This document shows, piece after piece, positions 1 to 64,000 of a stretch of DNA of 64,000 bases (position 1 is the stretch's first letter; each line of letters opens with the position of its first letter). Origin of the DNA: Escherichia phage p000y. The stretch lies in sequence record MK047718.1. One strand, 5' to 3'. Both the position numbers and the translations under genes were made by a program. The notes under the pieces are model-generated. The model made no database searches and had not been told where the DNA came from. It saw only the letters and a program-made list of their open reading frames with translations.

Positions 1-2
1 GC

Positions 3-1397
3 CATAACGTAATTGTTAACTGGTGTGATATTATTCCTGACTTTGGTTCATGGTCTTGGAATGTTAACGCAATCTATGTTAAGGGTGATGAATGTCGATA
101 TAATTTCGATGGTGAAAATATCACTAACGTAGGTTCAACAGGTGGTAATGTTGTAGGAATTTATCAGTTCAAAGACTGGGAATTCTACATGGGTTCTACT
201 GATGAGGAAATTCACGAATACTGCAAAGGTCGTGATTTCGTAGAATTCCTTTACGGCAGTGCATTCAATAAATCAGAGCTTATGAATCTAATTGATTTAG
301 GTGATATGCCTAAACTTGAAAAGGCTCATGAAGTTCGTGAACTGAATCGTAGTTTTAATGCAGTTGAAATTGGCGAAGAAACTGTAACTAAATTCGCGTT
401 AACCGAACAAGGTCGAGCTCTTCAAAAAGATGAGATTTCATGGTATTTGAAAGTGAAATCAGATTCAGTTCCTCAGTTAGTTTCGGTAAATGAAAATAAT
501 TTTGAAATGGAACGTATTAAAGGTAAGCCGGCATTTGAATATATTAAATCCAAATCAAGTCTTGCTCGTCCACAAATTGTTGATGCAATTTTAGATGCAC
601 TGAAATTCAGCACGGACACTTATTTTGTAAGTCCTGAAACTGTTCGCCGTGATTTCACTAAAGAGTTCTATACGAAAGTTATTGATCGTTGTGAAAGCAT
701 TCAGCCATTGATTGATTCATTTGGTAAAATCACACACGTGAACTACACTAAAATTGGACGTCTGAAGCCAATGTTGAAACAAGCTTTAGAACATCTTATT
801 CGTTATCATAACCGTTCTCAGGGACAGTACTCTGTTATTCATGGTGACCCGAACTTCAGTAATACTATGATTACCGATAACGGCGAAGTCAAGTTTATCG
901 ACCCTCGTGGATATTTTGGTGAAACCAAGATTTACGGGCCAAAATTATATGATGAAGCTAAAGTGCTTTATGCTGTTTCAGGTTATGATGAATTCAATGC
1001 TAATCCGACCTGGGGACAGTTTACTATTGATGAAACAACTTGTAATGTGACTATTAACATCAATCCATTAGTTTACAAATATGGAAAGATGAGTTCGTTT
1101 AACGAGTATCATCATTTGGCTGTAGCAATTATCTGGATTGCATTAGGTGGTTATTTCAAGAATAATCCACTTAAAGCGGTTGCCGCATATTATAAAGGTA
1201 TGGAACTTCTGACTAAGCAATTACGTAACATGGGCCGTGTACTTCAAGACGGCTCTATTAGTTATGACGTAGCAGAACCTGTAACGGCTACTCTGATTAC
1301 AAAAAATCCTGGTAAATGGGTACTAACTGATAAAGAAACTGGTGTTTCCTATCGTCCAATCGGCGGCGATATCACTCATCAATGGGAACGAATCTAA
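3..1397 (+). CDS. Kinase-fold protein (APH/choline-kinase-like), probably 5'-truncated by the window edge
   Basis: Frame is open from nt 3 with no stop before the ATG at 189 and no clear SD at 189. Brenner-type motif HGDPNFSN...KFIDPRGYFG typical of APH/ChoK-like phosphotransferases. Confidence 0.5.
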   Translation, partial: HNVIVNWCDIIPDFGSWSWNVNAIYVKGDECRYNFDGENITNVGSTGGNVVGIYQFKDWEFYMGSTDEEIHEYCKGRDFVEFLYGSAFNKSELMNLIDLGDMPKLEKAHEVRELNRSFNAVEIGEETVTKFALTEQGRALQKDEISWYLKVKSDSVPQLVSVNENNFEMERIKGKPAFEYIKSKSSLARPQIVDAILDALKFSTDTYFVSPETVRRDFTKEFYTKVIDRCESIQPLIDSFGKITHVNYTKIGRLKPMLKQALEHLIRYHNRSQGQYSVIHGDPNFSNTMITDNGEVKFIDPRGYFGETKIYGPKLYDEAKVLYAVSGYDEFNANPTWGQFTIDETTCNVTININPLVYKYGKMSSFNEYHHLAVAIIWIALGGYFKNNPLKAVAAYYKGMELLTKQLRNMGRVLQDGSISYDVAEPVTATLITKNPGKWVLTDKETGVSYRPIGGDITHQWERI

Positions 1398-1783
1398 TGC
1401 ACCGTGTAGAAAACATGCTTAATCTTTGTTTTGATGTCGATGATTGTATAACAGAGTGGAATAACAATCGTGATTACGTGAACTTCAAACCAGACGTCGA
1501 AATGGTGTCTGCCATTAATGCCCTGTATGATGCAGGGCATACCATAACGCTTTACACTGCCCGTGGTATGAAGTCGGTAGGTCCTGGTCGTATAGCAATT
1601 GACATTCTCCCAAGTCTGATTCAGAACTTGGAAAACATTGGTTTGAAGTACCATAATTTGCTAACACATAAACCAGTATATGATTGGATTATCGACGACA
1701 AAGCTATGCGTCCTGACGAATTCAAAGCTCTTATGAATAAAGGCGAATTCGAAACATTTAAATCATATAAACCAAATCTATAA
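1397..1783 (+). CDS. Small HAD-superfamily phosphatase-like protein
   Basis: TAATG overlap with the upstream ORF. N-terminal FDVDDCIT (DxDx motif I), later TARG and IDDKA motifs consistent with a capless HAD fold. Track start 1382 is an alternative. Confidence 0.5.
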   Translation: MHRVENMLNLCFDVDDCITEWNNNRDYVNFKPDVEMVSAINALYDAGHTITLYTARGMKSVGPGRIAIDILPSLIQNLENIGLKYHNLLTHKPVYDWIIDDKAMRPDEFKALMNKGEFETFKSYKPNL

Positions 1784-1829
1784 TAATTTAAGTAAGACCT
1801 GCAAAAACCATCGCATCAATTAACGCGAG

Positions 1830-2999
1830 ATGCAAAAAATGAATACTTTTAAAATCGGAACGAATTTTGATTTAGCTCTTCTTGATAAAATCGTAGAGCT
1901 CAATAAAACCTATCCTAATAGCTTGATAAACGAAGTATATGGCTCTACAAGAGAAATGGCTTTTGTAGCAGCCAGACCTGATTTTAGGCTTCCTGACGTT
2001 GACAAAAAGATGTTAGAAGACTACGTTAAACGTTGTAACGAATTAGGTATTTGCTTTAACTATACACTCAACACGATAAATCCTGGTTCAAAAAGAGAAC
2101 TAGTTGAGTGGAAGAAGAAAGCTATTCAGGATTATGTTCAGTATCTTTGGTCAATAGGCGTATGGCGTATTACTATCGCTAACCCTGTTGTTATGGAAAT
2201 TGTTCGTGAAGTCAATAAAGATATTGAGATTGAAGTTTCAACAATTCTACATGTCGATGCGGTAACTCAAATCAAATACTTACATGACCAATATAACATC
2301 AAAAAGGTCTGTTGCGGAATTCATAAGAACCGTTCAGTTTCTTTCCTGAAGCGTGCAGCAGAGTTTTGCAATAAGAACAATATAATATTTGAAGTTCTTG
2401 TAAATGAGTTCTGTTCTAATGCTGGTAAAGGGTATACAACACATTGTAGTTATCGTGACTCTTGCTATATTTTCCATAGTACTGATGTTACCGCTGATGA
2501 TGCTAAATCCTTAAATGGATATCCTATGCAGCACTGTATTAAAGCTCGTGATACAGACCCATTTAACTGGTTGAGAACTCGTTTTGTTCGTCCTCAAGAT
2601 TTGAAACTTTATAATGATATTGGTATCACTCAATTCAAAGTTTCAGGACGTACAGGTAGCACAGACTACATTTTGAAAGTTCTTGAAGCATACGCTTCTG
2701 AAAAGTTTGAAGGTAATTTGTTAGAACTGTGGAAGCCTTTAGAGACTATTTTCACTCTTGAAAATGAGACTGAGTTTTCACATACAGTAAATATTGAAAC
2801 CTCTTTGTTAGATGGCTTTTTAGAAAAAAGGTGGTTCAGACATCCAGATTTTGATTGTGCTAATGAAATCTGTGGGTCAACGTGTACATATTGTGAAAGG
2901 TATTATAAACGTCAATTATCTAAAAACGGGTTAGCAGAAAACTCCATATCTATTATTGATATAACTAACTCTGATGACGCTTTGAGGTACCCGGAATGA
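1830..2999 (+). CDS. Cys-rich 389-aa enzyme, peptidase-U32-like (RlhA/TrhP/UbiU family) by motif resemblance; alternatively an Fe-S protein with C-terminal CxxxCxYC
   Basis: Segments EVYGSTRE, FEVLVNEFCSNAGKGYTTHCSYRDSCY and ITQFKVSGRTGSTDYILKV resemble U32 TIM-barrel motifs as I recall them. C-terminal CANEICGSTCTYC cluster. Family call is unverified. Confidence 0.4.
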   Translation: MQKMNTFKIGTNFDLALLDKIVELNKTYPNSLINEVYGSTREMAFVAARPDFRLPDVDKKMLEDYVKRCNELGICFNYTLNTINPGSKRELVEWKKKAIQDYVQYLWSIGVWRITIANPVVMEIVREVNKDIEIEVSTILHVDAVTQIKYLHDQYNIKKVCCGIHKNRSVSFLKRAAEFCNKNNIIFEVLVNEFCSNAGKGYTTHCSYRDSCYIFHSTDVTADDAKSLNGYPMQHCIKARDTDPFNWLRTRFVRPQDLKLYNDIGITQFKVSGRTGSTDYILKVLEAYASEKFEGNLLELWKPLETIFTLENETEFSHTVNIETSLLDGFLEKRWFRHPDFDCANEICGSTCTYCERYYKRQLSKNGLAENSISIIDITNSDDALRYPE

Positions 3000-3235
3000 T
3001 TTCTAGAAAAAGTTTTAATTATAAACTTAACGAAGAGATTTTGACTATGAAACTGAACACTAACGAACAAATTCTTAAAAAGGCCCTTATGGGCCTGTTT
3101 GAAACCAAAGCGGCTAAAGTGATTAAAGAACCTGTTCAATTGGAATACTACACTGATGCATTCCTTCATAGTGTTCTTGGAAGTATAGATTCTGAAGCTT
3201 TACGTTATATCAACATTGTCAAGAAATTCAAATAA
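2996..3235 (+). CDS. Hypothetical protein (79 aa)
   Basis: ATGA overlap with the upstream gene; same-strand packing. Confidence 0.4.
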   Translation: MISRKSFNYKLNEEILTMKLNTNEQILKKALMGLFETKAAKVIKEPVQLEYYTDAFLHSVLGSIDSEALRYINIVKKFK

Positions 3236-3277
3236 GCTTTACGAATTGAGTATATAATAAATTGTATTGAGGTAAAC

Positions 3278-3994
3278 ATGGGAAAACATAACACAATGAA
3301 ATATATCAAAGCCGCAGATTTTCAAACCGCATTTAAAGCAGTCAATCGTGAAATTTTAGAAAACCCGGAATTCGTAACTGATTCTCGTATTGGACGTTGT
3401 AATGAAATTGGGTCTATGACAGTAGTTGTTGACACTCCATCATCATTCAAAATGACCGACCCACGTATTAACCGCATCTCTTATGAATATGCCGAAGACT
3501 TCTGGAAGTTTATGATTTCTGGTGGTACCAACGCAGAAGAAGCGTTTAAGGCATATCCTAATGTCGCTAAATTTATTTCTAAACCAAAATCAGATGTTTT
3601 GCCGGCGAACTTCAACACTTTCTATGGTCCTCGCATTGCGGCCCAATTACCAACTCTTCTAAAAGAACTTAAAGAAAAACCTAACTCTCGAAGAGTTGTG
3701 TTCCAAATTCTAGAAAGTTCTGATCAGGCTTTGCTTGATTCGGACGAAACACTTGAATATCCATGTACTGACTCAGTAACTTATTATATTCGTGATGGTA
3801 AGCTTTATACCCACTGTCATATGCGTTCTCAGAACTGTGCTGTTGTTATGCAGTTGGATTTTTATCTCCAAGGAAAATTACTTCATTATATCGCTAACGA
3901 ATGCGGTGTAGAAGTTGGTGATTATACTCATACCATGGTAAGTGCCCATGTGTTTGAACGTGATTTTGATTATGTTAAAGGATTCCTTGACTAA
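3278..3994 (+). CDS. 42: Deoxypyrimidylate hydroxymethylase of the thymidylate-synthase family (gp42-like dCMP hydroxymethylase)
   Basis: PNSRR, PCTDSVTYYIRD (catalytic Cys) and MRSQN...QLD motifs align with T4 gp42 PDSRR, MCTNTVQYLIRD, MRSND...RND. Sits directly upstream of the uvsX block as in T4. Appears more diverged than neighbouring core genes. Confidence 0.75.
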   Translation: MGKHNTMKYIKAADFQTAFKAVNREILENPEFVTDSRIGRCNEIGSMTVVVDTPSSFKMTDPRINRISYEYAEDFWKFMISGGTNAEEAFKAYPNVAKFISKPKSDVLPANFNTFYGPRIAAQLPTLLKELKEKPNSRRVVFQILESSDQALLDSDETLEYPCTDSVTYYIRDGKLYTHCHMRSQNCAVVMQLDFYLQGKLLHYIANECGVEVGDYTHTMVSAHVFERDFDYVKGFLD

Positions 3995-4893
3995 TGGCTA
4001 TTTTCCGCGTACCAATCTTGAGTATGCGGTCTTATGAAACTGGACAGTATGCTATCCTTAAGGATGGCAACTTCCAACTTCATTTGCACCGTGCTAATCC
4101 GGGTGATGTGATTACATATCCACGTAATGCATCTGATATTAAAGAATGCGAACGTCTTTTCCCAGAATTTAAGTTTGTTCCATTATGGTATAAAGATAAC
4201 GCGTATAACACTCGTAAATATTTCTGGACTGAAAATGAATTTGTGGTTGATTCATTAATTGATTATTATGATTGTGATTTTCTAATCACAGATATCACTG
4301 GTTATGGCGGCGCTTTTGATGTGGAATTCAATTTCAATATCACTGCAGACCCTAATAAACCACGTTTTTATATTGATGAATTCTTAAAAACCGACATGTT
4401 GTCTGTTAATCGTTCACTTCAAACTACTGTGTTGAATGAACGTCAAAAAGAAGTGCTGGTTAACGCAGGTGCAGATGGTAATAAGATTATCGTAACGCAG
4501 AAAGTTATACGTCCTTCCATCATGCAGCGTCTTGTAGGTGATTTGGCTCCTATTCATCTAGATGGTATTTTTCATCCATTTCGAATTAGTGACCCATGTT
4601 ATCGTTTTGAACAAGTGGTTGAATGTGCAATTCAATTAGGTCAACCGCTTTATATAACCGATCCAAATAATAGCTTCGACAGAAATAAGTATCCTGAAGA
4701 AGCGCTGATTCGAATTTTTAAACCAACTAAAACTGAGTACTATCAAATTCTTAAAGGACGTCCGAAAATTCAATATTTCGAAAATCCTGAAGAAGTATTC
4801 CATCCAGGTCTTGGTGAGTTCATCTACTTTAATGCTTTAATTTCTTCGCCGTATAATATACCTAAATACGAAGATGTCGTAATCGAGGAATAA
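3994..4893 (+). CDS. Hypothetical protein (299 aa) in the position T4 uses for beta-glucosyltransferase
   Basis: TAATG-coupled to gene 42. No resemblance to T4 beta-GT that I can see. Contains a YYDCDFLITD (DxD-like) segment. Function is inferred only from position. Confidence 0.5.
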   Translation: MAIFRVPILSMRSYETGQYAILKDGNFQLHLHRANPGDVITYPRNASDIKECERLFPEFKFVPLWYKDNAYNTRKYFWTENEFVVDSLIDYYDCDFLITDITGYGGAFDVEFNFNITADPNKPRFYIDEFLKTDMLSVNRSLQTTVLNERQKEVLVNAGADGNKIIVTQKVIRPSIMQRLVGDLAPIHLDGIFHPFRISDPCYRFEQVVECAIQLGQPLYITDPNNSFDRNKYPEEALIRIFKPTKTEYYQILKGRPKIQYFENPEEVFHPGLGEFIYFNALISSPYNIPKYEDVVIEE

Positions 4894-4894
4894 A

Positions 4895-5443
4895 ATGGCT
4901 AAAATTATTTTAGTAGATGGCCCGGATAATGCTGGTAAAACAACTTTCATTAATGACATAATGGAAATTAGTGAAAGATATGTAAAGATTGATTTCCCTA
5001 AACGAACAGTTGATGGACGTTTCGATGTTAAGTCTCGAAATGAAGTTGGCTGTTTCGAAACGATGTTGAATTATTTAGACCCTACTAAGATTTATCTGTT
5101 AGACCGTGGATATATTAGTAACTGGGTTTATGGACGTATTCGACAAGATGCGGACTCGATTCTTGACGTTTATGAACAGGACTATGTTCGTCTTTGCCAA
5201 AACCATGATGTGTTCACAATTATTTTAACACGTAACGAAATGACTGAAAGTTTTGAAGACGACCTTATTACTTTGTCTTCATTCGGTTTTAATACAGTCA
5301 TTTCACATTTTGAAGAGTTTGCAATTCATAACAAAATCCAAACGTATCAATTACTTAATCATGATGGTGCTAACAAAGTTATAGGATTTAATGCAAGCGA
5401 ACGTAATTATTTGATTACAGAAATTATCAAATGGGCTCGTTAA
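4895..5443 (+). CDS. P-loop nucleotide kinase, thymidylate-kinase-like
   Basis: Walker A GPDNAGKTT and LLDRGYISNWVYG (TMK-like DR(Y/H)xxSxxxYxG) motifs; 182 aa. Confidence 0.5.
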   Translation: MAKIILVDGPDNAGKTTFINDIMEISERYVKIDFPKRTVDGRFDVKSRNEVGCFETMLNYLDPTKIYLLDRGYISNWVYGRIRQDADSILDVYEQDYVRLCQNHDVFTIILTRNEMTESFEDDLITLSSFGFNTVISHFEEFAIHNKIQTYQLLNHDGANKVIGFNASERNYLITEIIKWAR

Positions 5444-5461
5444 GAGCCATTTAAAGTTTTA

Positions 5462-5488
5462 AATGCTGTATAACCCTTAGTATATAAT
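5462..5488 (+). promoter_or_regulatory. Candidate MotA-dependent middle promoter upstream of uvsX
   Basis: MotA-box-like aaTGCTgtA with TATAAT starting 19 nt after the TGCT core; same spacing as the candidate upstream of gene 39. Confidence 0.4.
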
Positions 5489-5541
5489 CATCTTATCTTT
5501 TAAACATGAGTAAAATATAATGATGCCTATGGAAAAATACA

Positions 5542-6714
5542 ATGTCTGATTTAAAATCTCGTCTGATTAAAGCTTCTACTTCTAAAATGACTGCAGACTT
5601 GACTAAGTCTAAGCTGTTTAATAATCGTGATGAAGTCCCTACTCGTATTCCGATGTTGAATATTGCATTAGGTGGTGCACTGAATGCCGGGTTGCAATCA
5701 GGCTTAACTATTTTTGCTGCTCCTTCTAAACACTTTAAAACGTTGTTTGGGCTGACCATGGTTGCAGCATATATGAAGAAATATAAAGATGCAATCTGTT
5801 TGTTTTATGACTCAGAATTCGGTGCTTCAGAATCTTATTTTCGTTCAATGGGTGTTGATTTAGACCGTGTAGTTCATACTCCGATTCAATCTGTCGAACA
5901 ACTTAAAGTTGATATGACTAATCAGCTTGACGCGATTGAACGCGGTGATAAAGTTATTATCTTTATCGATTCAATCGGTAATACTGCATCTAAGAAAGAA
6001 ACCGAAGATGCGTTGAACGAGAAAGTTGTAGGTGATATGTCTCGTGCTAAGGCACTTAAATCTCTGTTTCGCATTGTGACCCCGTATCTGACTATTAAAG
6101 ATATTCCGTGTGTTGCAATTAACCATACCGCAATGGAAATCGGCGGACTATATCCTAAAGAGATTATGGGTGGTGGTACAGGTATTCTTTACTCTGCTAA
6201 CACTGTATTCTTTATCTCTAAACGTCAGGTTAAAGAAGGTACAGAATTGACCGGTTATGACTTCACGTTGAAAGCAGAAAAATCTCGTACAGTTAAAGAG
6301 AAATCTACTTTCCCAATCACAGTTAATTTTGATGGTGGTATCGACCCATTCAGTGGCTTGTTAGAAATGGCAACTGAAATTGGTTTTGTAGTTAAGCCTA
6401 AAGCCGGGTGGTATGCTCGTGAATTCCTTGACGAAGAAACAGGTGAAATGATTCGTGAAGAGAAATCATGGCGTGCTAAAGCTACTGATTGTGTAGAATT
6501 CTGGGGACCGTTGTTTAAACACAAACCTTTCCGTGACGCAATTGAAACTAAATATAAACTAGGTGCTATCTCTTCTATTAAAGAAGTTGATGACGCTGTT
6601 AATGACCTTATTAATTGCAAAGCAACAACTAAAGTTCCGGTTAAAACTTCTGATGCTCCGTCTGCAGCAGATATAGAAAACGACCTTGATGAAATGGAAG
6701 ATTTCGATGAATAA
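5542..6714 (+). CDS. uvsX: UvsX RecA-like recombinase
   Basis: 390 aa; strong similarity to T4 UvsX from the N-terminus onward; synteny 42-uvsX-40-41. Confidence 0.95.
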   Translation: MSDLKSRLIKASTSKMTADLTKSKLFNNRDEVPTRIPMLNIALGGALNAGLQSGLTIFAAPSKHFKTLFGLTMVAAYMKKYKDAICLFYDSEFGASESYFRSMGVDLDRVVHTPIQSVEQLKVDMTNQLDAIERGDKVIIFIDSIGNTASKKETEDALNEKVVGDMSRAKALKSLFRIVTPYLTIKDIPCVAINHTAMEIGGLYPKEIMGGGTGILYSANTVFFISKRQVKEGTELTGYDFTLKAEKSRTVKEKSTFPITVNFDGGIDPFSGLLEMATEIGFVVKPKAGWYAREFLDEETGEMIREEKSWRAKATDCVEFWGPLFKHKPFRDAIETKYKLGAISSIKEVDDAVNDLINCKATTKVPVKTSDAPSAADIENDLDEMEDFDE

Positions 6715-10022: not shown

Positions 10023-10271
10023 ATGGAATTATTCGTAGCTAGTTCAGTAGCAGTTTTAATCGCAGGTATTGGTTCAATCATCATTTACATGTTGCCTTGG
10101 GTAATCGCACTTATTCGTGGCACAAAAAGCACAACAGCAATCTTCTTTGTATCTTTACTCTTTAACTGGACGATGATTGGTTGGATTGGAACTTTAATTT
10201 GGTCTATCGTTGCCGAAAAGAAATCTGCTCAGCAGCCTCAACAAGTAATTATTATTCGCGAAAAAGAATAA
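10023..10271 (+). CDS. Small membrane protein (82 aa, two predicted TM segments)
   Basis: Hydrophobic segments VASSVAVLIAGIGSIIIYMLPWVIALI and AIFFVSLLFNWTMIGWIGTLIWSIV; RBS GAGGAA. Confidence 0.5.
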   Translation: MELFVASSVAVLIAGIGSIIIYMLPWVIALIRGTKSTTAIFFVSLLFNWTMIGWIGTLIWSIVAEKKSAQQPQQVIIIREKE

Positions 10272-10628: not shown

Positions 10629-11280
10629 TATGATTTATTATATGCACAAAAACGCACCATTTAAATATGGTAAATTTCCTAATGCACAATGTTATAATAT
10701 AACGCCGAACGAAAATAATAACGGATATCATATTGGTGTAATTTTTGTAATTGTTAAAGATAACGAAATCATTGCCTGGGCCGATTTTAAAGGTACAACA
10801 TATGATGTTAATCCTGTGCCTTTCACATATTACAATATAATGGATTTGGCATATGATTATAATTGGTTTAATCATGACACGTTGGCTCATATTGAAGGTG
10901 TAGGATTTGACATCTCTTATTCTAGCTATTCATTATGTCCTATGAGCCGAGCTCACGGTAAAGATGTATCATATCTTTCAATTCGGAAACGTGTAAACTT
11001 CAAACGTAGTACAGAGTATGTTGGTGGACTCTTTGTTAAAGATAATAAAATAACCCGTATTAGTTATCCTTTAAGTGTAGGTCAAAAAGATGTTGACGTT
11101 GATTTGGACTTAACTGAAAATAACATTAATCGTATTGCTTCTGTATATTTTGATATCGATGAAAAAATTGTAGTGTGTGGATACGAATTACCACCTGAAG
11201 AAAAGGCTGAAGCAATTGAAGTCGAATTAGAAATTTCTGTTGATGACCAAATATTTAATGCATTTATGAATCGAGGTTAA
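10621..11280 (+). CDS. Hypothetical protein (219 aa)
   Basis: Overlaps the sp stop; same-strand packing; lies in the 61.x interval. Confidence 0.5.
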   Translation: MNNMIYYMHKNAPFKYGKFPNAQCYNITPNENNNGYHIGVIFVIVKDNEIIAWADFKGTTYDVNPVPFTYYNIMDLAYDYNWFNHDTLAHIEGVGFDISYSSYSLCPMSRAHGKDVSYLSIRKRVNFKRSTEYVGGLFVKDNKITRISYPLSVGQKDVDVDLDLTENNINRIASVYFDIDEKIVVCGYELPPEEKAEAIEVELEISVDDQIFNAFMNRG

Positions 11281-11281
11281 A

Positions 11282-11479
11282 ATGACTACTGCAATTTGCA
11301 CTGGTTCTAAAATTAGTGTTTTTACAAGTTTTGAAGATTATGAAGTTGTTTCAAAACACCAATGCCATATTAGCGTAAAAGCTAATGACGGTGTAATTTG
11401 GAATATTCCACAGTATGAAGGCACTACATATGAAGTCACAGATATAAATGGTAACAAAGCAATCTTTGTAATTGATTAA
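11282..11479 (+). CDS. Hypothetical protein (65 aa)
   Basis: Tightly packed ORF starting 2 nt after the previous stop. Confidence 0.4.
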   Translation: MTTAICTGSKISVFTSFEDYEVVSKHQCHISVKANDGVIWNIPQYEGTTYEVTDINGNKAIFVID

Positions 11480-11498
11480 ATATACTCAGGAGGTACCT

Positions 11499-11966
11499 AT
11501 GGGTATTATTAACACTGCAATAGATTCTGTTTACGCATATAAGTTTATTCGACTAATGCAAAAACCTTTTACCGAATGGAAAGCATACGAAGCCAAAATC
11601 ATCGATGAACGTGGAAGTGTTCTTAAACGCCCTTCCACTCCTGAAGAGAAAGCGGCTTATACACCTTTTCATGCTTCAGTTCGTTCAATGAAGCGAATGA
11701 TGAACACTGTTCCAGGTCTTAATGGAATGGCATCAATGATGTCTGCCTGGAGTGCTGTAGCATCCCGCTATAACATTACAGAAGAACAGCAGAAAGAAAT
11801 ATTTAAAGAACTCCCTTTATTTGAGGATATGGTGGCTGGTGATTCAGGTGGCAGCCCTCAAGCTATTGCATCAGGAACAACCACAGGTGCAGTCGTAAAT
11901 AAAGGTCCAGAACAAATTCCTTCCAAGAAAAGAAAGCGAATTAAAGTAAATATTAATAAGTTGTGA
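11499..11966 (+). CDS. Hypothetical protein (about 155 aa)
   Basis: ATG at 11499 preceded by a strong SD (CAGGAGG) with 5-nt spacing; track start 11472 is a TTG inside the previous ORF. Confidence 0.5.
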   Translation: MGIINTAIDSVYAYKFIRLMQKPFTEWKAYEAKIIDERGSVLKRPSTPEEKAAYTPFHASVRSMKRMMNTVPGLNGMASMMSAWSAVASRYNITEEQQKEIFKELPLFEDMVAGDSGGSPQAIASGTTTGAVVNKGPEQIPSKKRKRIKVNINKL

Positions 11967-12005
11967 TATGATGGCCTTATTAATTTAAGGCCTCTGGAGA
12001 ATACT

Positions 12006-13310: not shown

Positions 13311-13832
13311 ATGGCACACTTTAACGAATGTTCACAACTTATTTCCGGTGTTGATAAAGCAGAAGAAGCTTATTTTAATGCTCTGATTCACGAAGATAAA
13401 GACCCACTGCAGGTAATGCTTGATATGCAGAAATCTTTACAGGTTCGTCTGGCAAATGACAAGCCTGAACATAACAAACATCCTGATGAATTGGCCACTG
13501 CTGGTGATGTTGTTGATTGGCTGCGTAATCAGAAAGATTATATTGATGATGAATTTCGTGAACTGCTGACTTCACTTGGTGGTATGAGCAACGGTGAAAA
13601 AGCCGCCAGCAGTGTATGGAAGCCGTGGAAGGCACAACATGCTGAATATCGTAATCGTCGTATTGATGAACTGTCTCCTGAAGACCAGCTCGAAATTAAA
13701 TTCGAAATGATTGATATTCTGCACTTCGTTCTGAACATGTTCCAAGGTCTGGGTCTTTCTGCTGAAGAAATCTTTAAACTGTATTATCTGAAGAATGCTG
13801 AAAACTTTGCTCGTCAAGACCGAGGTTATTAA
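13311..13832 (+). CDS. 56: gp56 dCTPase (dCTP/dCDP pyrophosphatase, MazG-like)
   Basis: MAHFNEC...DPLQVMLDMQ...ETAGDVVDWLR...EEIFKLYYLKNAENFARQDRGY near-identical to T4 gp56 as recalled. ATG 13311 with AAGGA SD; track start 13296 is a TTG. Confidence 0.9.
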   Translation: MAHFNECSQLISGVDKAEEAYFNALIHEDKDPLQVMLDMQKSLQVRLANDKPEHNKHPDELATAGDVVDWLRNQKDYIDDEFRELLTSLGGMSNGEKAASSVWKPWKAQHAEYRNRRIDELSPEDQLEIKFEMIDILHFVLNMFQGLGLSAEEIFKLYYLKNAENFARQDRGY

Positions 13833-14989: not shown

Positions 14990-15165
14990 ACAAGATAGTT
15001 AAATGGTTTAAAAGCTGGGACGATGGTGTCGGTCCAGAAGATTGGCTGGATGTTCTTGAAGAGAATATGGCTAAAGAATTCCAGAAACATGAAGAAAAGC
15101 TCGTCGAAGATGAAGGCGAACGTATTGTAAAACTTTATATGGGTGAACCATCGAGGAAATTATAA
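14986..15165 (+). CDS. Hypothetical protein (59 aa)
   Basis: ATGA overlap; GGGAG SD. Confidence 0.35.
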   Translation: MNKIVKWFKSWDDGVGPEDWLDVLEENMAKEFQKHEEKLVEDEGERIVKLYMGEPSRKL

Positions 15166-15629
15166 TGGATGCTATGCTATTTAAAATGTATTTGCTTGAA
15201 GCCAAGTCATTTAAACATATACCAGTAGAAGATAAGACTCCACTAGAAATAGCTATTCTCATTAACAAAAGTCTAAATAATCCGCAATATATCGTAGAAG
15301 AATTCTGCAAATTGCAGATTCCTAAAGGTTACAAAATTCGTGTAGAGCGAGTTGGAGCTATTACTCGTTCTAAAAATTCTCCGTTTAGTCTTGAAGAAGG
15401 CATAAAGGACTTAGGTTATGAATCTACGGAAAATGCAGTTTATGTGAATCCTGAAAAGCGTTTAGACCTGTTTGAAAAGCGAGACCATAAGTATTTTGCC
15501 AAAAAATACTTTATTACATCATTAGCAGATTTAATCCATTTGCAACGAGCTATTTGGAAATTTTTTAAGACAAAAGGTGTAGCACTAGAAACGTTCTCTG
15601 AACCTGCTAGTTTTTATCTCGGTGAATAA
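15165..15629 (+). CDS. Hypothetical protein (154 aa), in the position of T4 mrh
   Basis: ORF in the soc-modA interval; the name is positional only. Confidence 0.45.
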   Translation: MDAMLFKMYLLEAKSFKHIPVEDKTPLEIAILINKSLNNPQYIVEEFCKLQIPKGYKIRVERVGAITRSKNSPFSLEEGIKDLGYESTENAVYVNPEKRLDLFEKRDHKYFAKKYFITSLADLIHLQRAIWKFFKTKGVALETFSEPASFYLGE

Positions 15630-15630
15630 T

Positions 15631-15810
15631 ATGGACCTTATGAGTATGTTTGATGAGCCTGAAGTTGAGGCTCCTAAAGTGCATCGTAGTGAACTTGTTG
15701 ATGAACTAGATAGTATTATACAGCGTCATGGCTTTAGTTTACCATTAGATGTCCTGAAAGACCTCGCCTCTTATTATGATGACCCTCCACCATGGAGTCC
15801 ATGGAAATGA
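15631..15810 (+). CDS. Hypothetical acidic protein (59 aa)
   Basis: ATG immediately after the upstream stop; track start 15622 is a GTG. Confidence 0.35.
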   Translation: MDLMSMFDEPEVEAPKVHRSELVDELDSIIQRHGFSLPLDVLKDLASYYDDPPPWSPWK

Positions 15811-16026
15811 AAGAGAAATTGAAAGAGAAATTCTTACTAGAAATCAAGGAAAAAGACTTTGAGACATGGTATCGAATGGTGAAAGGGTTGACATTGCTTT
15901 TTAAAGCATCCTTATTCATGTTAGAACAACCTGGTCCTGATGGACCTTTAGTAGGAAAGCTTAAAAAGTAGTTTACATTCCCTCCTCTCGTGTTATGATA
16001 GGCTTATCTTTAAATGGAGGTCTATC

Positions 16027-16608
16027 ATGACATGTCAATCTGAACTTCAAGAACGTGAATACCTAACAAATCTGATTGATAGCAAATTCACCCGCCAAGA
16101 ACAAAACATTCTCTGGGCTTGCACCGATTCTAAGGAAGACCCAGATTTCCACTATGAATTAGACCATCTTGTTCGTAAGCATATGACTTCTACAGTACCA
16201 GTAGAACTCTACCGTGGTGTAACTCCAGAAGAAGTAGAACGTCTTTCCCTTCTTTCTGTTGGATGCCATTGGTCTCCTGGACGAGTAACATCGTTCACAA
16301 CTGATTTCGGTACGGCTCGTCAATTCTCCGGGAGATGGGAATATCAGACGTACACTATTCTTAGTCTCAGGAATGCTCCATTCATTTTTGATTACTACCA
16401 AAACATGGTTAACATTGTACTCGCCGGAAAGAACCCTAAACATGTTATGGAAGAAACGCGTGTTGACGTCTTAGATATGATTGAATCTGAACAAGAGTAC
16501 ATGGTCTCAAGTATCTCTAGATTTGAGATTGTGGAAATTGAAGACTTAGAATATGACCCTTTATCTCGATTATACAAAATCATTCATTTGAAAATGTTGA
16601 ATTTTTAG
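16027..16608 (+). CDS. modA: ADP-ribosyltransferase, ModA-like
   Basis: R-S-E ART signature: LYRG (Arg), SFTTDFGTA (STS-like) and ESEQEYMV (ExE); tandem paralog follows; position matches T4 modA. Confidence 0.6.
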   Translation: MTCQSELQEREYLTNLIDSKFTRQEQNILWACTDSKEDPDFHYELDHLVRKHMTSTVPVELYRGVTPEEVERLSLLSVGCHWSPGRVTSFTTDFGTARQFSGRWEYQTYTILSLRNAPFIFDYYQNMVNIVLAGKNPKHVMEETRVDVLDMIESEQEYMVSSISRFEIVEIEDLEYDPLSRLYKIIHLKMLNF

Positions 16609-17274: not shown

Positions 17275-17427
17275 CTGAATTGGAATAACCGGATGGAACT
17301 CAGAACCATTATAACACATAAAAAATTAAAGCATTTTACGAAAAAAGAGTGTACACTACCTGAGGGCATGATATTATAGACTTATCAGCTAAATGACCTT
17401 AACGTCCGTAAGACAGAGGAAAATATT

Positions 17428-23941: not shown

Positions 23942-25759
23942 ATGATTAAAAATGAAATTAAGGTATTGTCAGATGTAGAACATATTAAGAAACGTAGTGG
24001 TATGTATATTGGTTCTTCTGCTAAAGAAGCACATGAGCGTTTTTTGTTTGGTAAATATCAACAAGTTGAATATGTTCCAGGTCTGGTTAAATTAATCGAT
24101 GAGATTATTGACAACTCGGTTGATGAAGCTATTCGTACATCATTTAAGTTTGCAAATAAAATTGATGTGCAAATTAAAAATAATCAAGTTTCGGTGGAAG
24201 ATAACGGACGTGGTATTCCTCAAGGTTTAGTTACCGACCAAACAGGTGAACAAATTCCTGGTCCTGTAGCAGCCTGGACTATTCCAAAGGCCGGTGGTAA
24301 CTTTGGTGATGACTCTGAACGCAAGACTGGTGGTATGAACGGCGTCGGGAGTAGTTTAACTAATATCTTCTCTACGTTGTTTACAGGCATCACGTCAGAT
24401 GGCGAAAATGAAATCACTGTTAACTGTTCAAACGGAATGGAAAACAAATCATGGTCTTCTAAGAAATCTAAAGGTAAAGGCACTAAAGTAATCTTCACTC
24501 CTGATTTCTCTTCATTTGAAGAGCATAATTTATCTCAAATTTATTTAGATATTACTTTAGACAGACTTCAAACATTGGCAGTCGTTTATCCTGATATCAA
24601 GTTCACATTTAATGGTAAAAAGGTTGATGGTAATTTTAAACGATTTGCTAAACAATTTGGTGAAGATAACATCATTCAAGAAAATGATAAAGTCTCTATA
24701 GCATTCACAACATCACCAGATGGCTTCCGTCATTTAACTTATGTGAATAACATCCATACTAAAAATGGTGGTCATCATGTTGAATGTGTAATGGATGATA
24801 TCTGCGAACATCTTTTGCCTGGTATTAAAAAGAAATATAAGGGTATTGAAGTCACTAAAGCTCGTGTTAAAGAATGCCTCACAATGTTGATGTTTATTAG
24901 AGACATGAGCAATATGCGTTTTGATTCTCAGACTAAAGAACGTTTAACGTCAACGTATGGTGATATTCGTAATCATATCCAATTAGATGCTAAGAAAATT
25001 GCTCAGGCACTTCTTAAAAACGAAGCCTTGATTATGCCTATTGTTGAAGCAGCATTAGCTCGTAAATTGGCGGCAGAAAAGGCTGCAGAAACTAAAGCAG
25101 CTAAAAAGGCAACTAAAGCTAAGGTTCATAAGCATATTAAAGCTAACCAATGTGGTAAAGACGCAGATACGACATTGTTCTTAACAGAAGGTGATTCTGC
25201 AATTGGTTATCTCATTGATGTTCGTGACCGTGAACTACACGGCGGATTCCCATTACGTGGTAAGGTGATGAATAGCTGGGGTATGTCATATGCGGATATG
25301 ATGAAGAACAAAGAGCTCTTTGATATCTGTGCTATCACAGGTCTTATTCTTGGTGAAAAGGCCGAGAATACGAACTATCGTAATATTGCAATTATGACTG
25401 ACGCAGATCACGACGGTCTTGGAAGTATCTATCCGGCTTTGCTTGCTTTCTTTAGTAATTGGCCTGAATTGTTTGAACAAGGACGTATTCGCTTTGTTAA
25501 AACACCTGTAATTATTGCACAAATTGGCAAAACTCAAAAATGGTTTTATACTGTAGCTGAGTATGAAGAAGTTAAAGATACACTGCCTAAGCATAGTATT
25601 CGATACATCAAGGGATTAGGCTCCCTTGAAAAGTCAGAGTATCGTGAAATGATTCAGAACCCTGTGTACGACGTAGTTAAACTTCCTGAAAATTGGAAAG
25701 AACTCTTTGAAATGTTGATGGGTGATGATTCAGAACTTCGTAAAGAATGGATGTCCTAA
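23942..25759 (+). CDS. 39: DNA topoisomerase II large subunit (GyrB-like), continuous 39/60 fusion
   Basis: 605 aa; GHKL ATPase motifs (IDEIIDNSVDEA, GGMNGVGSS), TOPRIM (LTEGDSA) and the C-terminal part corresponding to T4 gp60 in one uninterrupted frame. Confidence 0.9.
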   Translation: MIKNEIKVLSDVEHIKKRSGMYIGSSAKEAHERFLFGKYQQVEYVPGLVKLIDEIIDNSVDEAIRTSFKFANKIDVQIKNNQVSVEDNGRGIPQGLVTDQTGEQIPGPVAAWTIPKAGGNFGDDSERKTGGMNGVGSSLTNIFSTLFTGITSDGENEITVNCSNGMENKSWSSKKSKGKGTKVIFTPDFSSFEEHNLSQIYLDITLDRLQTLAVVYPDIKFTFNGKKVDGNFKRFAKQFGEDNIIQENDKVSIAFTTSPDGFRHLTYVNNIHTKNGGHHVECVMDDICEHLLPGIKKKYKGIEVTKARVKECLTMLMFIRDMSNMRFDSQTKERLTSTYGDIRNHIQLDAKKIAQALLKNEALIMPIVEAALARKLAAEKAAETKAAKKATKAKVHKHIKANQCGKDADTTLFLTEGDSAIGYLIDVRDRELHGGFPLRGKVMNSWGMSYADMMKNKELFDICAITGLILGEKAENTNYRNIAIMTDADHDGLGSIYPALLAFFSNWPELFEQGRIRFVKTPVIIAQIGKTQKWFYTVAEYEEVKDTLPKHSIRYIKGLGSLEKSEYREMIQNPVYDVVKLPENWKELFEMLMGDDSELRKEWMS

Positions 25760-25782
25760 GCTCCTTCGGGAGCTTCATTTTA
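25759..25782 (+). terminator. Hairpin terminator after gene 39
   Basis: AAGCTCC-TTCG-GGAGCTT followed by a T-rich tract. Confidence 0.5.
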
Positions 25783-25801
25783 ATTTTAATAAGGCTTAAT
25801 T

Positions 25802-26902
25802 ATGAAAGTTATGTTTATCCCATCTCGCGCAGTCCCATTTAACCCAGAACGTGTACAAGGTGGTCTTGAAGCAGTACATTTAAATGTGTTGAAATATTTA
25901 GTTTCTATCTGTGCTGATATTGATTATATCGGTTTTGATAATGACACATTTGGTGATTGGAAGGTTAATCATCATCCTGTTGGTCATCTGACAAAATTCA
26001 GTCTAGGTATGAGTTATACTATGGCTCGTAAGATTGTTGAACTAGCCGGCATCCATGAATACGATTTCGTTGTTACTATGGAACCGACTAAACTAACCGT
26101 TCAGGCAATTAAAGACGCAGGCCTCTCTAAAGTTCATAAGAATTTTATGGCAACACCATTTGAACCGGTATCTCGTGGCATTGTTCAAATTTGGGACCAG
26201 ACTATTCAAATTCATAAGAATGGTGGTAAGAGTTATGCTCCTACTAAAGCCTTCCGTGAATTTGAACGCAAATATTGTTATATGACTTCAGGTCTGACTG
26301 ACAAAATTGATTATGATTATTGGCGAGCAAATCCGTTGTTTGAAGCCGAAGATTATCCGGTTATTTGTTTGAATGAGAAACCTGAAGTTCTTCCGGCGAC
26401 GGATCTGATTATTAGTGCACAACGTTATGACACTAAAATGCGTCGTACTGATGTTGCTCTTGAAGCGATTAAAGCACTAGGCGAAAATGGTGCAGGATAC
26501 TGTCCTAGTAAATGGGCACCACCAGCTAAATATCCTGTTATTATTGATGCTCCACACAGTGAAATCATGGAACGCCTTAAAACAGCTAAAGCACTTATTA
26601 ATACGTGTCCTGACACAGGTACGGTAGAGAATAGTTCTATTGAAGCCATCTCTAAAGGTGTCCCTGTAATCCAGTTAGTTTTTAAGGATTATCCTCATGC
26701 GACATTTGAATACGACCCAGATACTGTGCGTGTAGAAATTGATTCCTCTACTCCTAAGAAAGAAGTAGTTGCGCTTTACACAAAAGCTGTATTAGAATTC
26801 ACTGACACATACGAAGCTCGAGTTAAACGTGCTGAAGCAGTATGGAAGAAGTATAACCGAGATGCAGTTGTTGCGATGTGGGATAAAATCTTCACAGCGT
26901 AA
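25802..26902 (+). CDS. GT-B fold glycosyltransferase (GT4-like), candidate DNA sugar transferase
   Basis: C-terminal DTGTVENSSIEAISKGVPVI resembles the GT-B EX7E / donor-binding segment; 366 aa; inserted between 39 and rIIA. Confidence 0.55.
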   Translation: MKVMFIPSRAVPFNPERVQGGLEAVHLNVLKYLVSICADIDYIGFDNDTFGDWKVNHHPVGHLTKFSLGMSYTMARKIVELAGIHEYDFVVTMEPTKLTVQAIKDAGLSKVHKNFMATPFEPVSRGIVQIWDQTIQIHKNGGKSYAPTKAFREFERKYCYMTSGLTDKIDYDYWRANPLFEAEDYPVICLNEKPEVLPATDLIISAQRYDTKMRRTDVALEAIKALGENGAGYCPSKWAPPAKYPVIIDAPHSEIMERLKTAKALINTCPDTGTVENSSIEAISKGVPVIQLVFKDYPHATFEYDPDTVRVEIDSSTPKKEVVALYTKAVLEFTDTYEARVKRAEAVWKKYNRDAVVAMWDKIFTA

Positions 26903-55994: not shown

Positions 55995-56048
55995 GACTTT
56001 TTATTATAATTTACTCATGGATGAGTTAATAACTAAGTGAGAAATATA

Positions 56049-62793: not shown

Positions 62794-63786
62794 ATGTTAC
62801 CTGTCGTCGGAAAACTTATTTCTCCAAAAGAACTGGCTGAGATTATTCCTTTGTCGGAAGCTTACGCATCACAAGTGGCTTCTCATCGCGAACAAGTTAA
62901 TTCGATTATGAACGGTGAAGACCCACGCAAACTTATTGTTGTAGGTCCTTGTTCAATTCATGACCCTATTGCTGCTGTTGAATACGGCAAACGTCTGGCT
63001 GAACTTCAAACTCGTCTTCCTAATGTTCTGTTAGTGATGCGCGTTTATTTTGAAAAGCCTCGAACTACCGTAGGTTGGAAAGGTCTTGTAAATGATCCAT
63101 ATCTTGACGGAAGTTTTGATATGAACCACGGTCTTATAGTTGCACGAACATTGTGTCGTAAACTTCTACGTATGGGACTTCCATTAGCAACTGAAGTATT
63201 AGACCCATTCACGATTAAGTATCTTTCTGGTATTTTCTCATGGGTTGCTATTGGCGCCCGTACGACTGAAAGTCAGACACATCGTGAAATTGCTTCAGGT
63301 CTACCGATGTGCGTAGGCTTCAAGAACGCAACCAATGGTTCTATTAAAGTAGCTACAGACGCGATGTATAGCGCCGCCTGGCCTCATCGGTATATGGGTA
63401 TGGACGTCGATGGTACTGTAGGCATTGTTGAAGCTGAAGGTAATCAGAATACGCATATCGTATTGCGTGGCGGGACCAACGGCCCGAACTATCATTCTTC
63501 TGATATTCAAGAAGCTTCTAACAAAGCAAGTGCAGTAGGTCTGAATCATTATGTAATGGTTGACTGTAGCCATGCAAACGCTGCTGGGCATTATAGCAAT
63601 CAAATTGGTATTGGTAAAAATTTAGCAGCTAATGATTTGGTCAAAGGAATTATGATAGAATCATTCCTACATGAAGGAAATCAAAAAATTTCTGATAATA
63701 TGTCCTATGGCGTTTCCGTTACCGATGCGTGCATCAGTTGGGAACAAACTAAAGAGCTGTTAACTTATATTAATAAGGTTCAATAA
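62794..63786 (+). CDS. 3-deoxy-D-arabino-heptulosonate-7-phosphate (DAHP) synthase, class I (AroG/AroF/AroH-like)
   Basis: LIVVGPCSIHDP, VMRVYFEKPRTTVGWKGLVNDP, GARTTESQTHRE, GFKN.T.G, IVLRGG, VMVDCSHAN and ESFLHEGNQ align with E. coli AroG motifs as recalled; 330 aa. Confidence 0.85.
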   Translation: MLPVVGKLISPKELAEIIPLSEAYASQVASHREQVNSIMNGEDPRKLIVVGPCSIHDPIAAVEYGKRLAELQTRLPNVLLVMRVYFEKPRTTVGWKGLVNDPYLDGSFDMNHGLIVARTLCRKLLRMGLPLATEVLDPFTIKYLSGIFSWVAIGARTTESQTHREIASGLPMCVGFKNATNGSIKVATDAMYSAAWPHRYMGMDVDGTVGIVEAEGNQNTHIVLRGGTNGPNYHSSDIQEASNKASAVGLNHYVMVDCSHANAAGHYSNQIGIGKNLAANDLVKGIMIESFLHEGNQKISDNMSYGVSVTDACISWEQTKELLTYINKVQ

Positions 63787-64000
63787 TGAAAGCTAGCACA
63801 TATCTTCAAATTGCTTATTTGATTTCTCAAGAATCAAAATGTTGTTCATGGAAAGTTGGTGCCGTCATTGAAAAAGATGGACGCATTATTTCTACAGGTT
63901 ATAATGGCTCTCCTTCAGGTGGTACAAACTGTTGCGAACATGCATCCGAAAACGGTTGGTTGAAGAATAAACCAAGCCCGGTCATCGTTGCTGGGCATAA
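63786..64000 (+). CDS. cd: dCMP deaminase (3'-truncated by the window end)
   Basis: MKASTYLQIAYLISQESKCCSWKVGAVIEKDGRIISTGYNGSPSGG matches the T4 Cd N-terminus as recalled; TAATG overlap. Confidence 0.85.
   Translation, partial: MKASTYLQIAYLISQESKCCSWKVGAVIEKDGRIISTGYNGSPSGGTNCCEHASENGWLKNKPSPVIVAGH

Follow-up and report, generated by a model that had tools for sequence, protein, structure and literature searches.

Escherichia phage p000y (sequence record MK047718.1) carries, at the start of the 64,000-nucleotide stretch analyzed here (the window; one strand, 5' to 3'), a gene cassette in the slot that gene 42 occupies in phage T4. This locus is very probably the arabinosyl-5-hydroxycytosine (ara-5hoC) hypermodification cluster of RB69-like phages of the genus Mosigvirus. 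As a system, this cassette has already been published (Lee et al. NAR 2026; He et al. Nat Chem Biol 2026; Mahler et al. Cell Host Microbe 2025). What is new here, and a testable lead, is a link between one of its genes, which encodes a U32-family protein (1830-2999, + strand), and a gene for 3-deoxy-D-arabino-heptulosonate-7-phosphate (DAHP) synthase (62794-63786, + strand). We propose, at a probability of about 0.5, that the U32 protein is an anaerobic, prephenate-dependent cytosine C5-hydroxylase fed by the DAHP synthase. The broader claim that it is a pyrimidine C5-hydroxylase of some kind appears somewhat more probable.

The U32 protein (389 residues; homolog of RB69 gp50; predicted to hold an iron-sulfur (Fe-S) center) matched the Peptidase_U32 domain and the U32 TIM-barrel fold. 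An initial annotation of the window, made from the letters alone, had called it a Cys-rich enzyme, and 13 Cys were indeed counted. Ten Cys are invariant in an alignment of 28 homologs (47-87% identity). Phage residues E188, C195 and C206 align with the U32 motif, corresponding to RlhA E161, C169 and C176, and C343 and C352 align with RlhA C580 and C611, although the C-terminal alignment is gappy and this pairing tentative. According to Kimura et al., C169, C176, C580 and C611 are essential in RlhA; all four are matched by invariant Cys across the 28 phage members. U32 proteins have been tied to O2-independent hydroxylation, RlhA to ho5C2501 of 23S rRNA, TrhP to ho5U34 of tRNA and UbiU/UbiV to anaerobic ubiquinone. 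Prephenate has been shown to donate the oxygen in the UbiU/V-dependent steps, RlhA needs it in order to function, and it has been proposed as the donor for the whole U32 family; as of a 2024 PNAS paper, the direct activity of U32 hydroxylases had not been reconstituted in vitro. With the NCBIfam UbiU model the phage protein scored 18 bits against a cut-off of 440. Judged by sequence, phage U32 is a subfamily separate from the characterised U32 enzymes, and a search of 1.84 billion representatives placed 456 clusters in it at E<=1e-30.

The DAHP synthase, which catalyzes the opening step of the shikimate pathway, is a type I-alpha enzyme of 330 residues. The initial annotation had named it correctly: it is of genuine AroFGH type (NCBIfam aroFGH, 4e-128; TIGR00034, 427 bits against a cut-off of 173; Pfam, 7e-75), contains the KPRT motif and shares 48% identity with E. 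coli AroG. The equivalents of C61, H268, E302, D326, R92, K97, R165, K186 and R234, which we take to be the metal and phosphoenolpyruvate ligands of AroG, are all conserved. Relative to AroG the N-terminus is 8 residues shorter, D6/D7 are absent and five further residues differ (M147P, P150I, Q151K, S180P and S211G), at positions that presumably form the Phe-inhibitor site. Because residues of this site are missing or changed, the phage enzyme is probably insensitive to feedback control. The gene lies within a nucleotide-precursor block (frd, td, nrdA, nrdB, denA, pseT, cd), and its stop codon overlaps the start codon (TAATG) of the dCMP deaminase gene cd, whose 5' end (63786-64000, + strand) is cut by the window end. 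From this arrangement the DAHP synthase is predicted to be co-translated with the deaminase.

Searches by tblastn of 50,697 phage records found U32 in 221 and the DAHP synthase in 212, with genus distributions that nearly mirror each other. This co-occurrence is based on genus counts and sampled records; by the genus counts, the Acinetobacter phages and Dhakaviruses without U32 have no DAHP synthase either. Evidence independent of this co-distribution in T4-like phages, and stronger, came from a local census with hidden Markov models (HMMs) of 34 U32 loci outside the T4-like group, each 8-21 kb long and reaching at most ~10 kb to either side of U32. In five of these loci, representing ~4 lineages (L050 and L052 are identical in sequence), the immediate neighbor of U32 is a type I-beta DAHP synthase. 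These genes scored far better as DAHP synthase than as 3-deoxy-D-manno-octulosonate-8-phosphate (KDO-8-P) synthase (NCBIfam DAHPS 2.6e-70 versus KDO8PS 2.9e-17; 237 versus 63 bits), and all five contain KPRT. In three (L049, L050 and L052) the DAHP synthase and a chorismate mutase domain (Pfam CM_2, 5.5e-20 to 8.1e-18) form one fusion protein. The product of chorismate mutase is prephenate. By their position beside U32, these DAHP synthases and chorismate mutases connect the DAHP synthase of the window with the cassette. The initial annotation had included this gene as a guess; the comparative data now supply a proposed rationale, namely prephenate for the U32 enzyme. Note that reading the U32-adjacent DAHP_synth_1 genes as KDO-8-P synthases, in a Kdo-like sugar path with arabinose-5-phosphate isomerase, HAD phosphatase and nucleotidyltransferase, was ruled out by these scores and by the presence of KPRT rather than KANRS.

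The distribution of U32 relative to its cassette partners also bears on its function. These partners include a thymidylate synthase (TS)-fold protein, a glycosyltransferase (GT1) and a thymidylate kinase (TMK)-like kinase. The form of the TS-fold protein specific to 5-hydroxylation (5ho-type TS) was found in 345 phage records, 57 of them of Acinetobacter phages, with ~40 more Escherichia records than U32; no Acinetobacter phage was among the matches listed for U32. The clusters of Acinetobacter phage Apostate and of Dhakavirus Bp7 are collinear with the window minus exactly U32 and the 79-residue open reading frame (ORF) that follows it. The cluster of phage DLP3 (gp76-83), by the gene list of Lee et al. 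(PMC13326640), has no U32, yet DLP3 makes tri-arabinosyl-5hoC. U32 is therefore dispensable for sugar activation and transfer.

Conversely, U32 homologs (44-57% identity) occur on metagenomic phage contigs outside the T4-like group, from siphovirus-like genomes of ~44 kb to jumbo phages of up to 466 kb, and including phages with DnaE-type polymerases. A GT1 homolog was present in 17 of the 34 loci, mostly directly upstream of U32, a TMK-like kinase in several, and a pair of isomerase and nucleotidyltransferase/kinase genes in five (L011, L048, L049, L052 and L059). None of the 34 loci had a 5ho-type TS within the flanks covered; the only TS detected in the census (L041) has the ordinary residues L143/D169/N177 (E. 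coli ThyA numbering). GT1 loci without U32 (large phage contigs L021 and L022) carry a TS of the D169N type, a TMK-like kinase and a gene of the Flavodoxin_2 family. The recurring unit would thus be a hydroxylase, of either TS or U32 type, together with GT1 and a TMK-like kinase, with Mosigviruses having both hydroxylases; the pattern looks like non-orthologous displacement of the hydroxylase. We give even odds to a wider proposition, that U32 founds a large phage subfamily whose members hydroxylate C5 of deoxycytidylate (or of cytosine in DNA) independently of O2 and dependent on prephenate, with two non-homologous routes to 5hoC in RB69-like phages and uncultivated phages that use U32 only.

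Further neighbors were noted in these loci. The Flavodoxin_2 gene (a family of FMN-dependent NAD(P)H oxidoreductases) lies directly upstream of TS in L022 (6739-7293) and ~6 kb upstream in L021 (1-523); this neighbor fits the flavin dependence of the TS enzyme, much as DAHP synthase accompanies U32. In L012, from an uncultivated phage, a gene of the TET-associated glycosyltransferase (TAGT) family directly follows U32, with a UDP-galactopyranose mutase gene nearby (11098-12000 and 15073-16179), which hints at a galactofuranosyl-5-hydroxypyrimidine modification made without a TET or TS homolog. A radical SAM/SPASM protein is encoded near U32 in L013 (7980-9011) and L014 (7972-9000), between the TMK-like kinase and a GT1-like gene, and in L002 (1-249), ~8 kb upstream of U32.

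The proposed pathway would run as follows. The phage dCTPase destroys dCTP, and the TS-fold enzyme hydroxylates dCMP at C5 with flavin mononucleotide (FMN) and O2; both steps were shown by others with near-identical proteins. Kinases take 5-hydroxy-dCMP to the triphosphate, which is incorporated in place of dC, as also shown by others, and the TMK-like kinase of the cassette may be the one that handles the modified nucleotide. Other work on near-identical proteins has likewise shown that the isomerase, encoded here just upstream of the window, converts ribulose-5-phosphate to arabinose-5-phosphate, from which the bifunctional enzyme at 3-1397 and the HAD phosphatase at 1382-1783 would make UDP-arabinofuranose, the route demonstrated for their homologs. 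GT1 would then add the first arabinose and a second transferase, GT2, the second, as proposed by Lee et al. Into this scheme we would place U32 as a second C5-hydroxylase, one that works without O2, draws its oxygen from prephenate and supplies 5hoC nucleotides during anaerobic growth of the host. The phage DAHP synthase would raise flux through the shikimate pathway and so provide prephenate for U32. T4 itself offers a precedent, in that it encodes both an aerobic (NrdAB) and an anaerobic (NrdDG) ribonucleotide reductase. By analogy, the two proposed routes to 5hoC would parallel UbiI/H/F and UbiU/V, TrhO and TrhP, and NrdAB and NrdDG.

We considered whether U32 might instead act on the sugar or the completed base, be it as epimerase, as reductase or in UDP-arabinose biosynthesis, and take no part in cytosine hydroxylation. 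Existing labels point this way ('sugar or heterocycle reductase' in Table 1 of PMC13326640; 'putative enzyme involved in UDP-arabinose biosynthesis' in the BASEL collection), as do the location of U32 between the sugar genes and the TS gene and the isomerase and nucleotidyltransferase/kinase genes that adjoin it in five metagenomic loci. However, the Acinetobacter phages, including the tri-arabinosylated DLP3, and the Dhakaviruses possess the full set of sugar and transferase genes without U32, while many metagenomic loci combine U32, GT1 and a TMK-like kinase beside a DNA polymerase without genes for sugar activation. Moreover, activity on sugars is not known for any U32 member, and such a role gives no rationale for the adjacent DAHP synthase/chorismate mutase genes, which have the KPRT of DAHP synthase and not the KANRS of KDO-8-P synthase. 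We regard a sugar- or base-directed function as unlikely. Even less probable is that U32 hydroxylates host or phage tRNA or rRNA, like TrhP and RlhA, or that it is a protease, its place in the cassette being incidental. The nucleic-acid substrates known for U32 enzymes are all RNAs, T4-like phages are generally known to encode tRNAs, and the historical annotation of the family is that of a collagenase-type peptidase. Yet in several unrelated phage lineages the neighbors of U32 are GT1, the TMK-like kinase, dCMP deaminase and DNA polymerase, and the phage protein, at 389 residues, is without the extra domains of RlhA (653 residues) and TrhP (453 residues).

As to the DAHP synthase, it is possible, though we lean against it, that the gene is a general auxiliary metabolic gene, serving aromatic amino acid synthesis or draining erythrose-4-phosphate, and is unlinked to the cassette. 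It lies ~58 kb away, some U32-bearing phages do without it, and the host already has three DAHP synthases. Against this, among phages the gene is nearly confined to the U32-bearing T4-like lineages, it is coupled in translation to dCMP deaminase within the nucleotide-precursor block, and elsewhere an unrelated enzyme class (I-beta) is found directly beside U32, three times as a fusion with chorismate mutase. Other observations count against prephenate-dependent hydroxylation by U32 itself. The similarity to characterised U32 enzymes is remote (the phage-family profile scored 13.9 bits with TrhP, 8.9 with RlhA, 4.3 with UbiU and -1.6 with UbiV). The metagenomic loci extend no further than ~10 kb from U32, and a 5ho-type TS could lie elsewhere in those genomes. 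The Dhakaviruses, which infect E. coli, have no U32. In T4-like phages the co-occurrence of U32 and DAHP synthase is confounded by shared ancestry, and Yersinia phage phiR1-RT (Tegunavirus; L065, 13387-15986), which has U32, carries four small hypothetical ORFs and no DAHP synthase between pseT and cd, which makes the DAHP synthase an accessory gene and not one that must accompany U32. Finally, Table 1 of PMC13326640 lists gp50 only under the reductase label, and the paper does not discuss it; we found no earlier statement of the U32-hydroxylase idea in the literature, but He et al. 2026 and Mahler et al. 2025 may already address gp50. The account of Lee et al. assigns no role to gp50 or gp49 and does not mention the DAHP synthase. 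Its discussion cites the work on RlhA and on tRNA ho5U as other cases of pyrimidine hydroxylation, without remark on the family of gp50.

The TS-fold protein (3278-3994, + strand; 238 residues; RB69 gp48 homolog; Pfam Thymidylat_synt, 1.9e-15) had been called a hydroxymethylase by the initial annotation, and the DNA a hydroxymethyl-pyrimidine DNA; neither assignment held. The protein matched PDB 9IQC/9IR2 at 2.9e-160 (phmmer), with 6 differences in 238 residues (~97% identity), and the T4 gp42 structure was absent from its best 60 PDB matches. In addition to the catalytic C163 it has E160, N186 and D194, equivalent to L143E, D169N and N177D in E. coli ThyA numbering, and it has lost the ThyA active-site residue W80. 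In contrast, T4 gp42, E. coli ThyA and the phage's own td all have D at position 169. This signature and the identity to 9IQC mark the protein, by homology, as a flavin (FMN)- and O2-dependent dCMP 5-hydroxylase, that is, a 5-hydroxy-dCMP synthase. RB69 gp48 makes 5-hydroxy-dCMP, takes up 18O from 18O2 and co-purifies with FMN (PMC13326640), and the same paper refers to the crystal structure that He et al. 2026 obtained for the HY126 homolog with flavin bound. The older model, in which the protein is a dCMP hydroxymethylase and the cassette puts an unusual sugar on hydroxymethylcytosine (hmC), giving arabinosyl-hmC, drew on the position of the gene in the gene-42 slot, on the label 'deoxycytidylate 5-hydroxymethyltransferase' in several records, on D177 and an acidic residue at 143 common to this protein and T4 gp42, and on the report of arabinosyl-hmC in RB69 by Thomas et al. 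2018. It is now hardly tenable. Besides the N at 169, the lost W80, the near-identity to the crystallised enzyme, the flavin in the HY126 homolog and the 18O incorporation by RB69 gp48, nuclear magnetic resonance (NMR) and mass spectrometry (MS) revealed an ether link without a methylene group; the 2018 assignment has been called erroneous, and the model is refuted for RB69 and for phage NP.

Published chemistry thus defines the product in close relatives. Thomas et al. 2018 had reported RB69 DNA as arabinosyl-hmC, and Lee et al. (PMC13326640), using MS and NMR, corrected the assignment to mono- and di-arabinosyl-5-hydroxycytosine, with arabinose ether-linked straight to C5 and C fully replaced. 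An independent study of Mosigvirus NP agrees with ara-5hoC and calls the 2018 assignment erroneous; virion DNA of both RB69 and NP contains mono- and di-arabinosyl-5hoC in place of dC. From sequence identity, the phage of the window is expected to have the same modified DNA. Our identification of the cassette rests on gene order, which is that of RB69 gp45-gp55, on the ~97% identity of the TS homolog to 9IQC, on the D169N signature and on the GT-B fold of GT1; nothing of substance was found to contradict it. A T4-type glucosyl-hmC system was not what we found, given the N at position 169 and a 299-residue protein unlike T4 beta-gt. The initial annotation was accordingly right in kind in recognizing a DNA hypermodification module in place of T4-type glucosylation, but the gene content is that of the published ara-5hoC cluster, and the novelty it implied is overtaken by a system in print since 2025-2026.

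Bases 1-5500 share 99.5% DNA identity with Escherichia phage p000v (genus Mosigvirus, RB69 group), and at least 80% of this region is covered in 151 phage records. The ORFs of the initial annotation are all present on the + strand, including those at 25802-26902 and 62794-63786, and the T4 layout it quoted (43, imm.1, imm, 42, beta-gt, segA, uvsX) is correct. Co-orientation of the cassette genes was borne out. The translational coupling claimed for all of them applies at four of the six junctions, which overlap or abut (-16, -4 (ATGA), -1 (TAATG) and +1 nt), and fails at the two with gaps of 42 and 46 nt; in order, the junctions are -16, +46, -4, +42, -1 and +1 nt. Likewise, the TS homolog is more diverged from T4 than its neighbors (25% identity to gp42, versus 68% for UvsX, 79% for gp40 and 88% for gp41), but at 88% and 68% gp41 and UvsX are not the near-identical proteins they were said to be. 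Ordinary imm or beta-gt homologs within the cassette were ruled out: imm, which in T4 sits beside gene 42, is at 10023-10268, downstream of gene 41 and dmd and beside spackle, and GT1 has no similarity to beta-gt.

Upstream of the cassette, p000v has the order DNA polymerase, arabinose-5-phosphate isomerase, a 47-residue ORF and a 561-residue protein. The window begins within the last of these and holds just its C-terminal 465 residues (3-1397, + strand; frame open at the window edge, N-terminus cut). It is a bifunctional sugar-1-phosphate nucleotidyltransferase/arabinose-5-phosphate kinase, homologous to RB69 gp52:53 and HY126 AfhE. The initial annotation, seeing the C-terminal part alone, had described a kinase-fold protein, which is accurate for that part. 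The full-length p000v protein matched NTP_transferase (1.3e-9) and an APH-like kinase; the gene was also assigned to PHROG 4098 (6e-236). The next gene encodes the HAD-type phosphatase (1382-1783, + strand; 133 residues; RB69 gp51/AfhF homolog), an assignment already made by the initial annotation and upheld by matches to NCBIfam TIGR01689, capsule biosynthesis phosphatase (1.9e-13), and PHROG 1238 (3e-43). With the SIS-domain isomerase and the nucleotidyltransferase domain, both encoded in the p000v genome (99.5% identical) immediately ahead of the part that matches the window, all functions for UDP-arabinofuranose supply are present (isomerase, kinase/nucleotidyltransferase and HAD phosphatase). 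PMC13326640 assigns RB69 gp55 as arabinose-5-phosphate isomerase, gp52:53 as kinase/UDP-sugar pyrophosphorylase and gp51 as HAD phosphatase, with Araf-1,5-P2 to Araf-1-P as the proposed phosphatase reaction, and summarises the demonstrated steps of HY126 AfhE and AfhF toward UDP-Araf.

The same paper assigns gp46:47 and gp3 as arabinosyltransferases, gp3 being beta-arabinosyltransferase 2, and gp45 as a nucleotide kinase. GT1 (3994-4893, + strand; 299 residues) is the gp46:47 homolog. Its AlphaFold2 model (pLDDT 93.8) gave Foldseek matches that were all of GT-B fold, namely MshA (3C4Q), BH4 glucosyltransferase (5ZE7) and UDP-GlcNAc 2-epimerases, and comparison with T4 beta-gt found no similarity. 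GT1 is proposed to add the first alpha-arabinofuranose to 5-hydroxycytosine. Note that the transfer step was reconstituted with DLP3 gp76+gp77 alone, the role of the first transferase, which may act on the nucleotide or on DNA, being a proposal (PMC13326640). GT2 (25802-26902, + strand; 366 residues; PHROG 8302) is the gp3 homolog and lies at the expected position, between topoisomerase gene 39 and rIIA, so that its inclusion in the same system by the initial annotation proved sound; it is 43% and 41% identical to two glycosyltransferase genes of Acinetobacter phage Apostate. By homology and position the window would therefore encode two arabinosyltransferases, GT1 beside the TS gene and GT2 at the gene 39 locus. 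In p000v, a homing endonuclease gene (146415-147212) is inserted between gene 39 and GT2; the window is without it, and the two genes are 42 nt apart (25759-25802).

The P-loop kinase that closes the cassette (4895-5443, + strand; 182 residues; gp45 homolog) was, as initially annotated, thymidylate-kinase-like (PHROG 761 thymidylate kinase, 4e-45; weak dTMP-kinase P-loop match), and its homologs accompany GT1 and a hydroxylase in unrelated phages. Sequence searches of the PDB returned no relatives for GT1 or U32, and for the TMK-like kinase P-loop noise alone. A dCTP pyrophosphatase (13311-13832, + strand; T4 gp56 homolog by tblastn) is also present, with 97.7% identity to the NTP pyrophosphohydrolase of p000v and 74% to the dCTPase of Bp7. 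The enzyme is listed in the pathway in Table 1 of PMC13326640 and removes dCTP, leaving the modified nucleotide for incorporation.

The 79-residue ORF downstream of U32 (2996-3235, + strand; RB69 ORF049c homolog; PHROG 8601, 2e-50) overlaps the U32 stop codon through ATGA. It occurs in 162 phage records, always adjoining U32. No Klebsiella records were among its matches, despite the U32 clusters of Klebsiella phages, and it was not detected in the metagenomic U32 loci. It evolves faster than U32 (86-100% versus >=99% identity within Mosigvirus) and is split into two frameshifted pieces in several genomes. An obligatory partnership with U32 was rejected, the ORF being undetected with many U32 genes and sometimes frameshifted.

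A MotA-box-like element with a -10 sequence (GCTTTA-N11-TATAAT; 3236-3258, + strand) lies 20 nt upstream of the TS homolog and is probably a T4-type middle promoter. A second such element (4834-4857, + strand) falls within the 3'-terminal part of the GT1 gene, ahead of the gene for the kinase, and may serve likewise. GCTTTA-N10-14-TATAAT occurs five times in the window against 0.1 expected, the other copies being at 17308-17332 (- strand), 45139-45163 and 55988-56010. The two copies before the TS homolog and the TMK-like kinase suggest middle-mode transcription of both genes. A scan of 1-5700 for sigma-70 promoters and terminators yielded hits at or below chance.

If the U32 protein acts as proposed, this would be the first DNA-related role for U32 hydroxylases. 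RB69-like phages would then have a flavin/O2-dependent TS-fold route for aerobic hosts and an Fe-S U32 route for anaerobic ones, such as E. coli in the gut. This would explain how phages of facultative anaerobes achieve full cytosine replacement when the O2-dependent enzyme cannot work, and would account for the long-annotated but unexplained DAHP synthase gene of T4-like phages. Many uncultivated phages (siphovirus-like, jumbo, with DnaE-type polymerases) would make glycosylated 5-hydroxypyrimidine DNA by means of U32 and GT1-like transferases. Such phages would also be relevant to evasion of restriction and CRISPR and to selecting therapeutic phages for the anoxic gut.

Compared with known systems, the window is closest to the RB69 gp45-gp55 plus gp3 cluster and the HY126 Afh cluster, with which it shares genus, gene order and protein identities of 97-100%. 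The dCTPase, 5-hydroxy-dCMP synthase, nucleotidyltransferase/kinase, HAD phosphatase, GT1, GT2 and TMK-like kinase are all there; essentially nothing differs within the window, except that the nucleotidyltransferase/kinase is cut and the arabinose-5-phosphate isomerase falls outside it. With the T4 system of gene 42, alpha-gt and beta-gt the cassette shares the slot between gene 43 and uvsX and the same logic, in which a dCTPase is followed by a TS-fold enzyme acting on dCMP, a kinase, incorporation and a sugar transferase. It differs in that T4 gp42, only 25% identical, keeps D at ThyA position 169 where the window's homolog has N. According to published work on homologs of the window's enzyme, flavin and O2 take the place of the folate used by gp42; a CH2-O bridge in T4 contrasts with a direct ether link, and UDP-glucose from the host with arabinofuranose made by phage enzymes. 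Phage systems of TET/JBP dioxygenases and TAGT transferases (5mC to 5hmC to glycosyl-5hmC) similarly pair a hydroxylase with a DNA-base glycosyltransferase. Their enzymes, however, use Fe(II), 2-oxoglutarate and O2 on 5mC in DNA, while in the system of the window C5 itself receives the hydroxyl, probably at the level of the nucleotide.

The phage U32 protein, in turn, shares with RlhA, TrhP and UbiU/V the TIM-barrel, the E...C...C motif and Cys compatible with an Fe-S center, and with RlhA a C-terminal Cys cluster. Like the function proposed here, those of RlhA and TrhP are tied to hydroxylation of a pyrimidine at C5. The known U32 enzymes parallel O2-dependent routes (UbiI/H/F, TrhO), as phage U32 would parallel the TS-type enzyme, and they have the same link to the shikimate pathway and prephenate. 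They act on RNA or quinone, in contrast to the deoxynucleotide or DNA that would be the substrate of phage U32.

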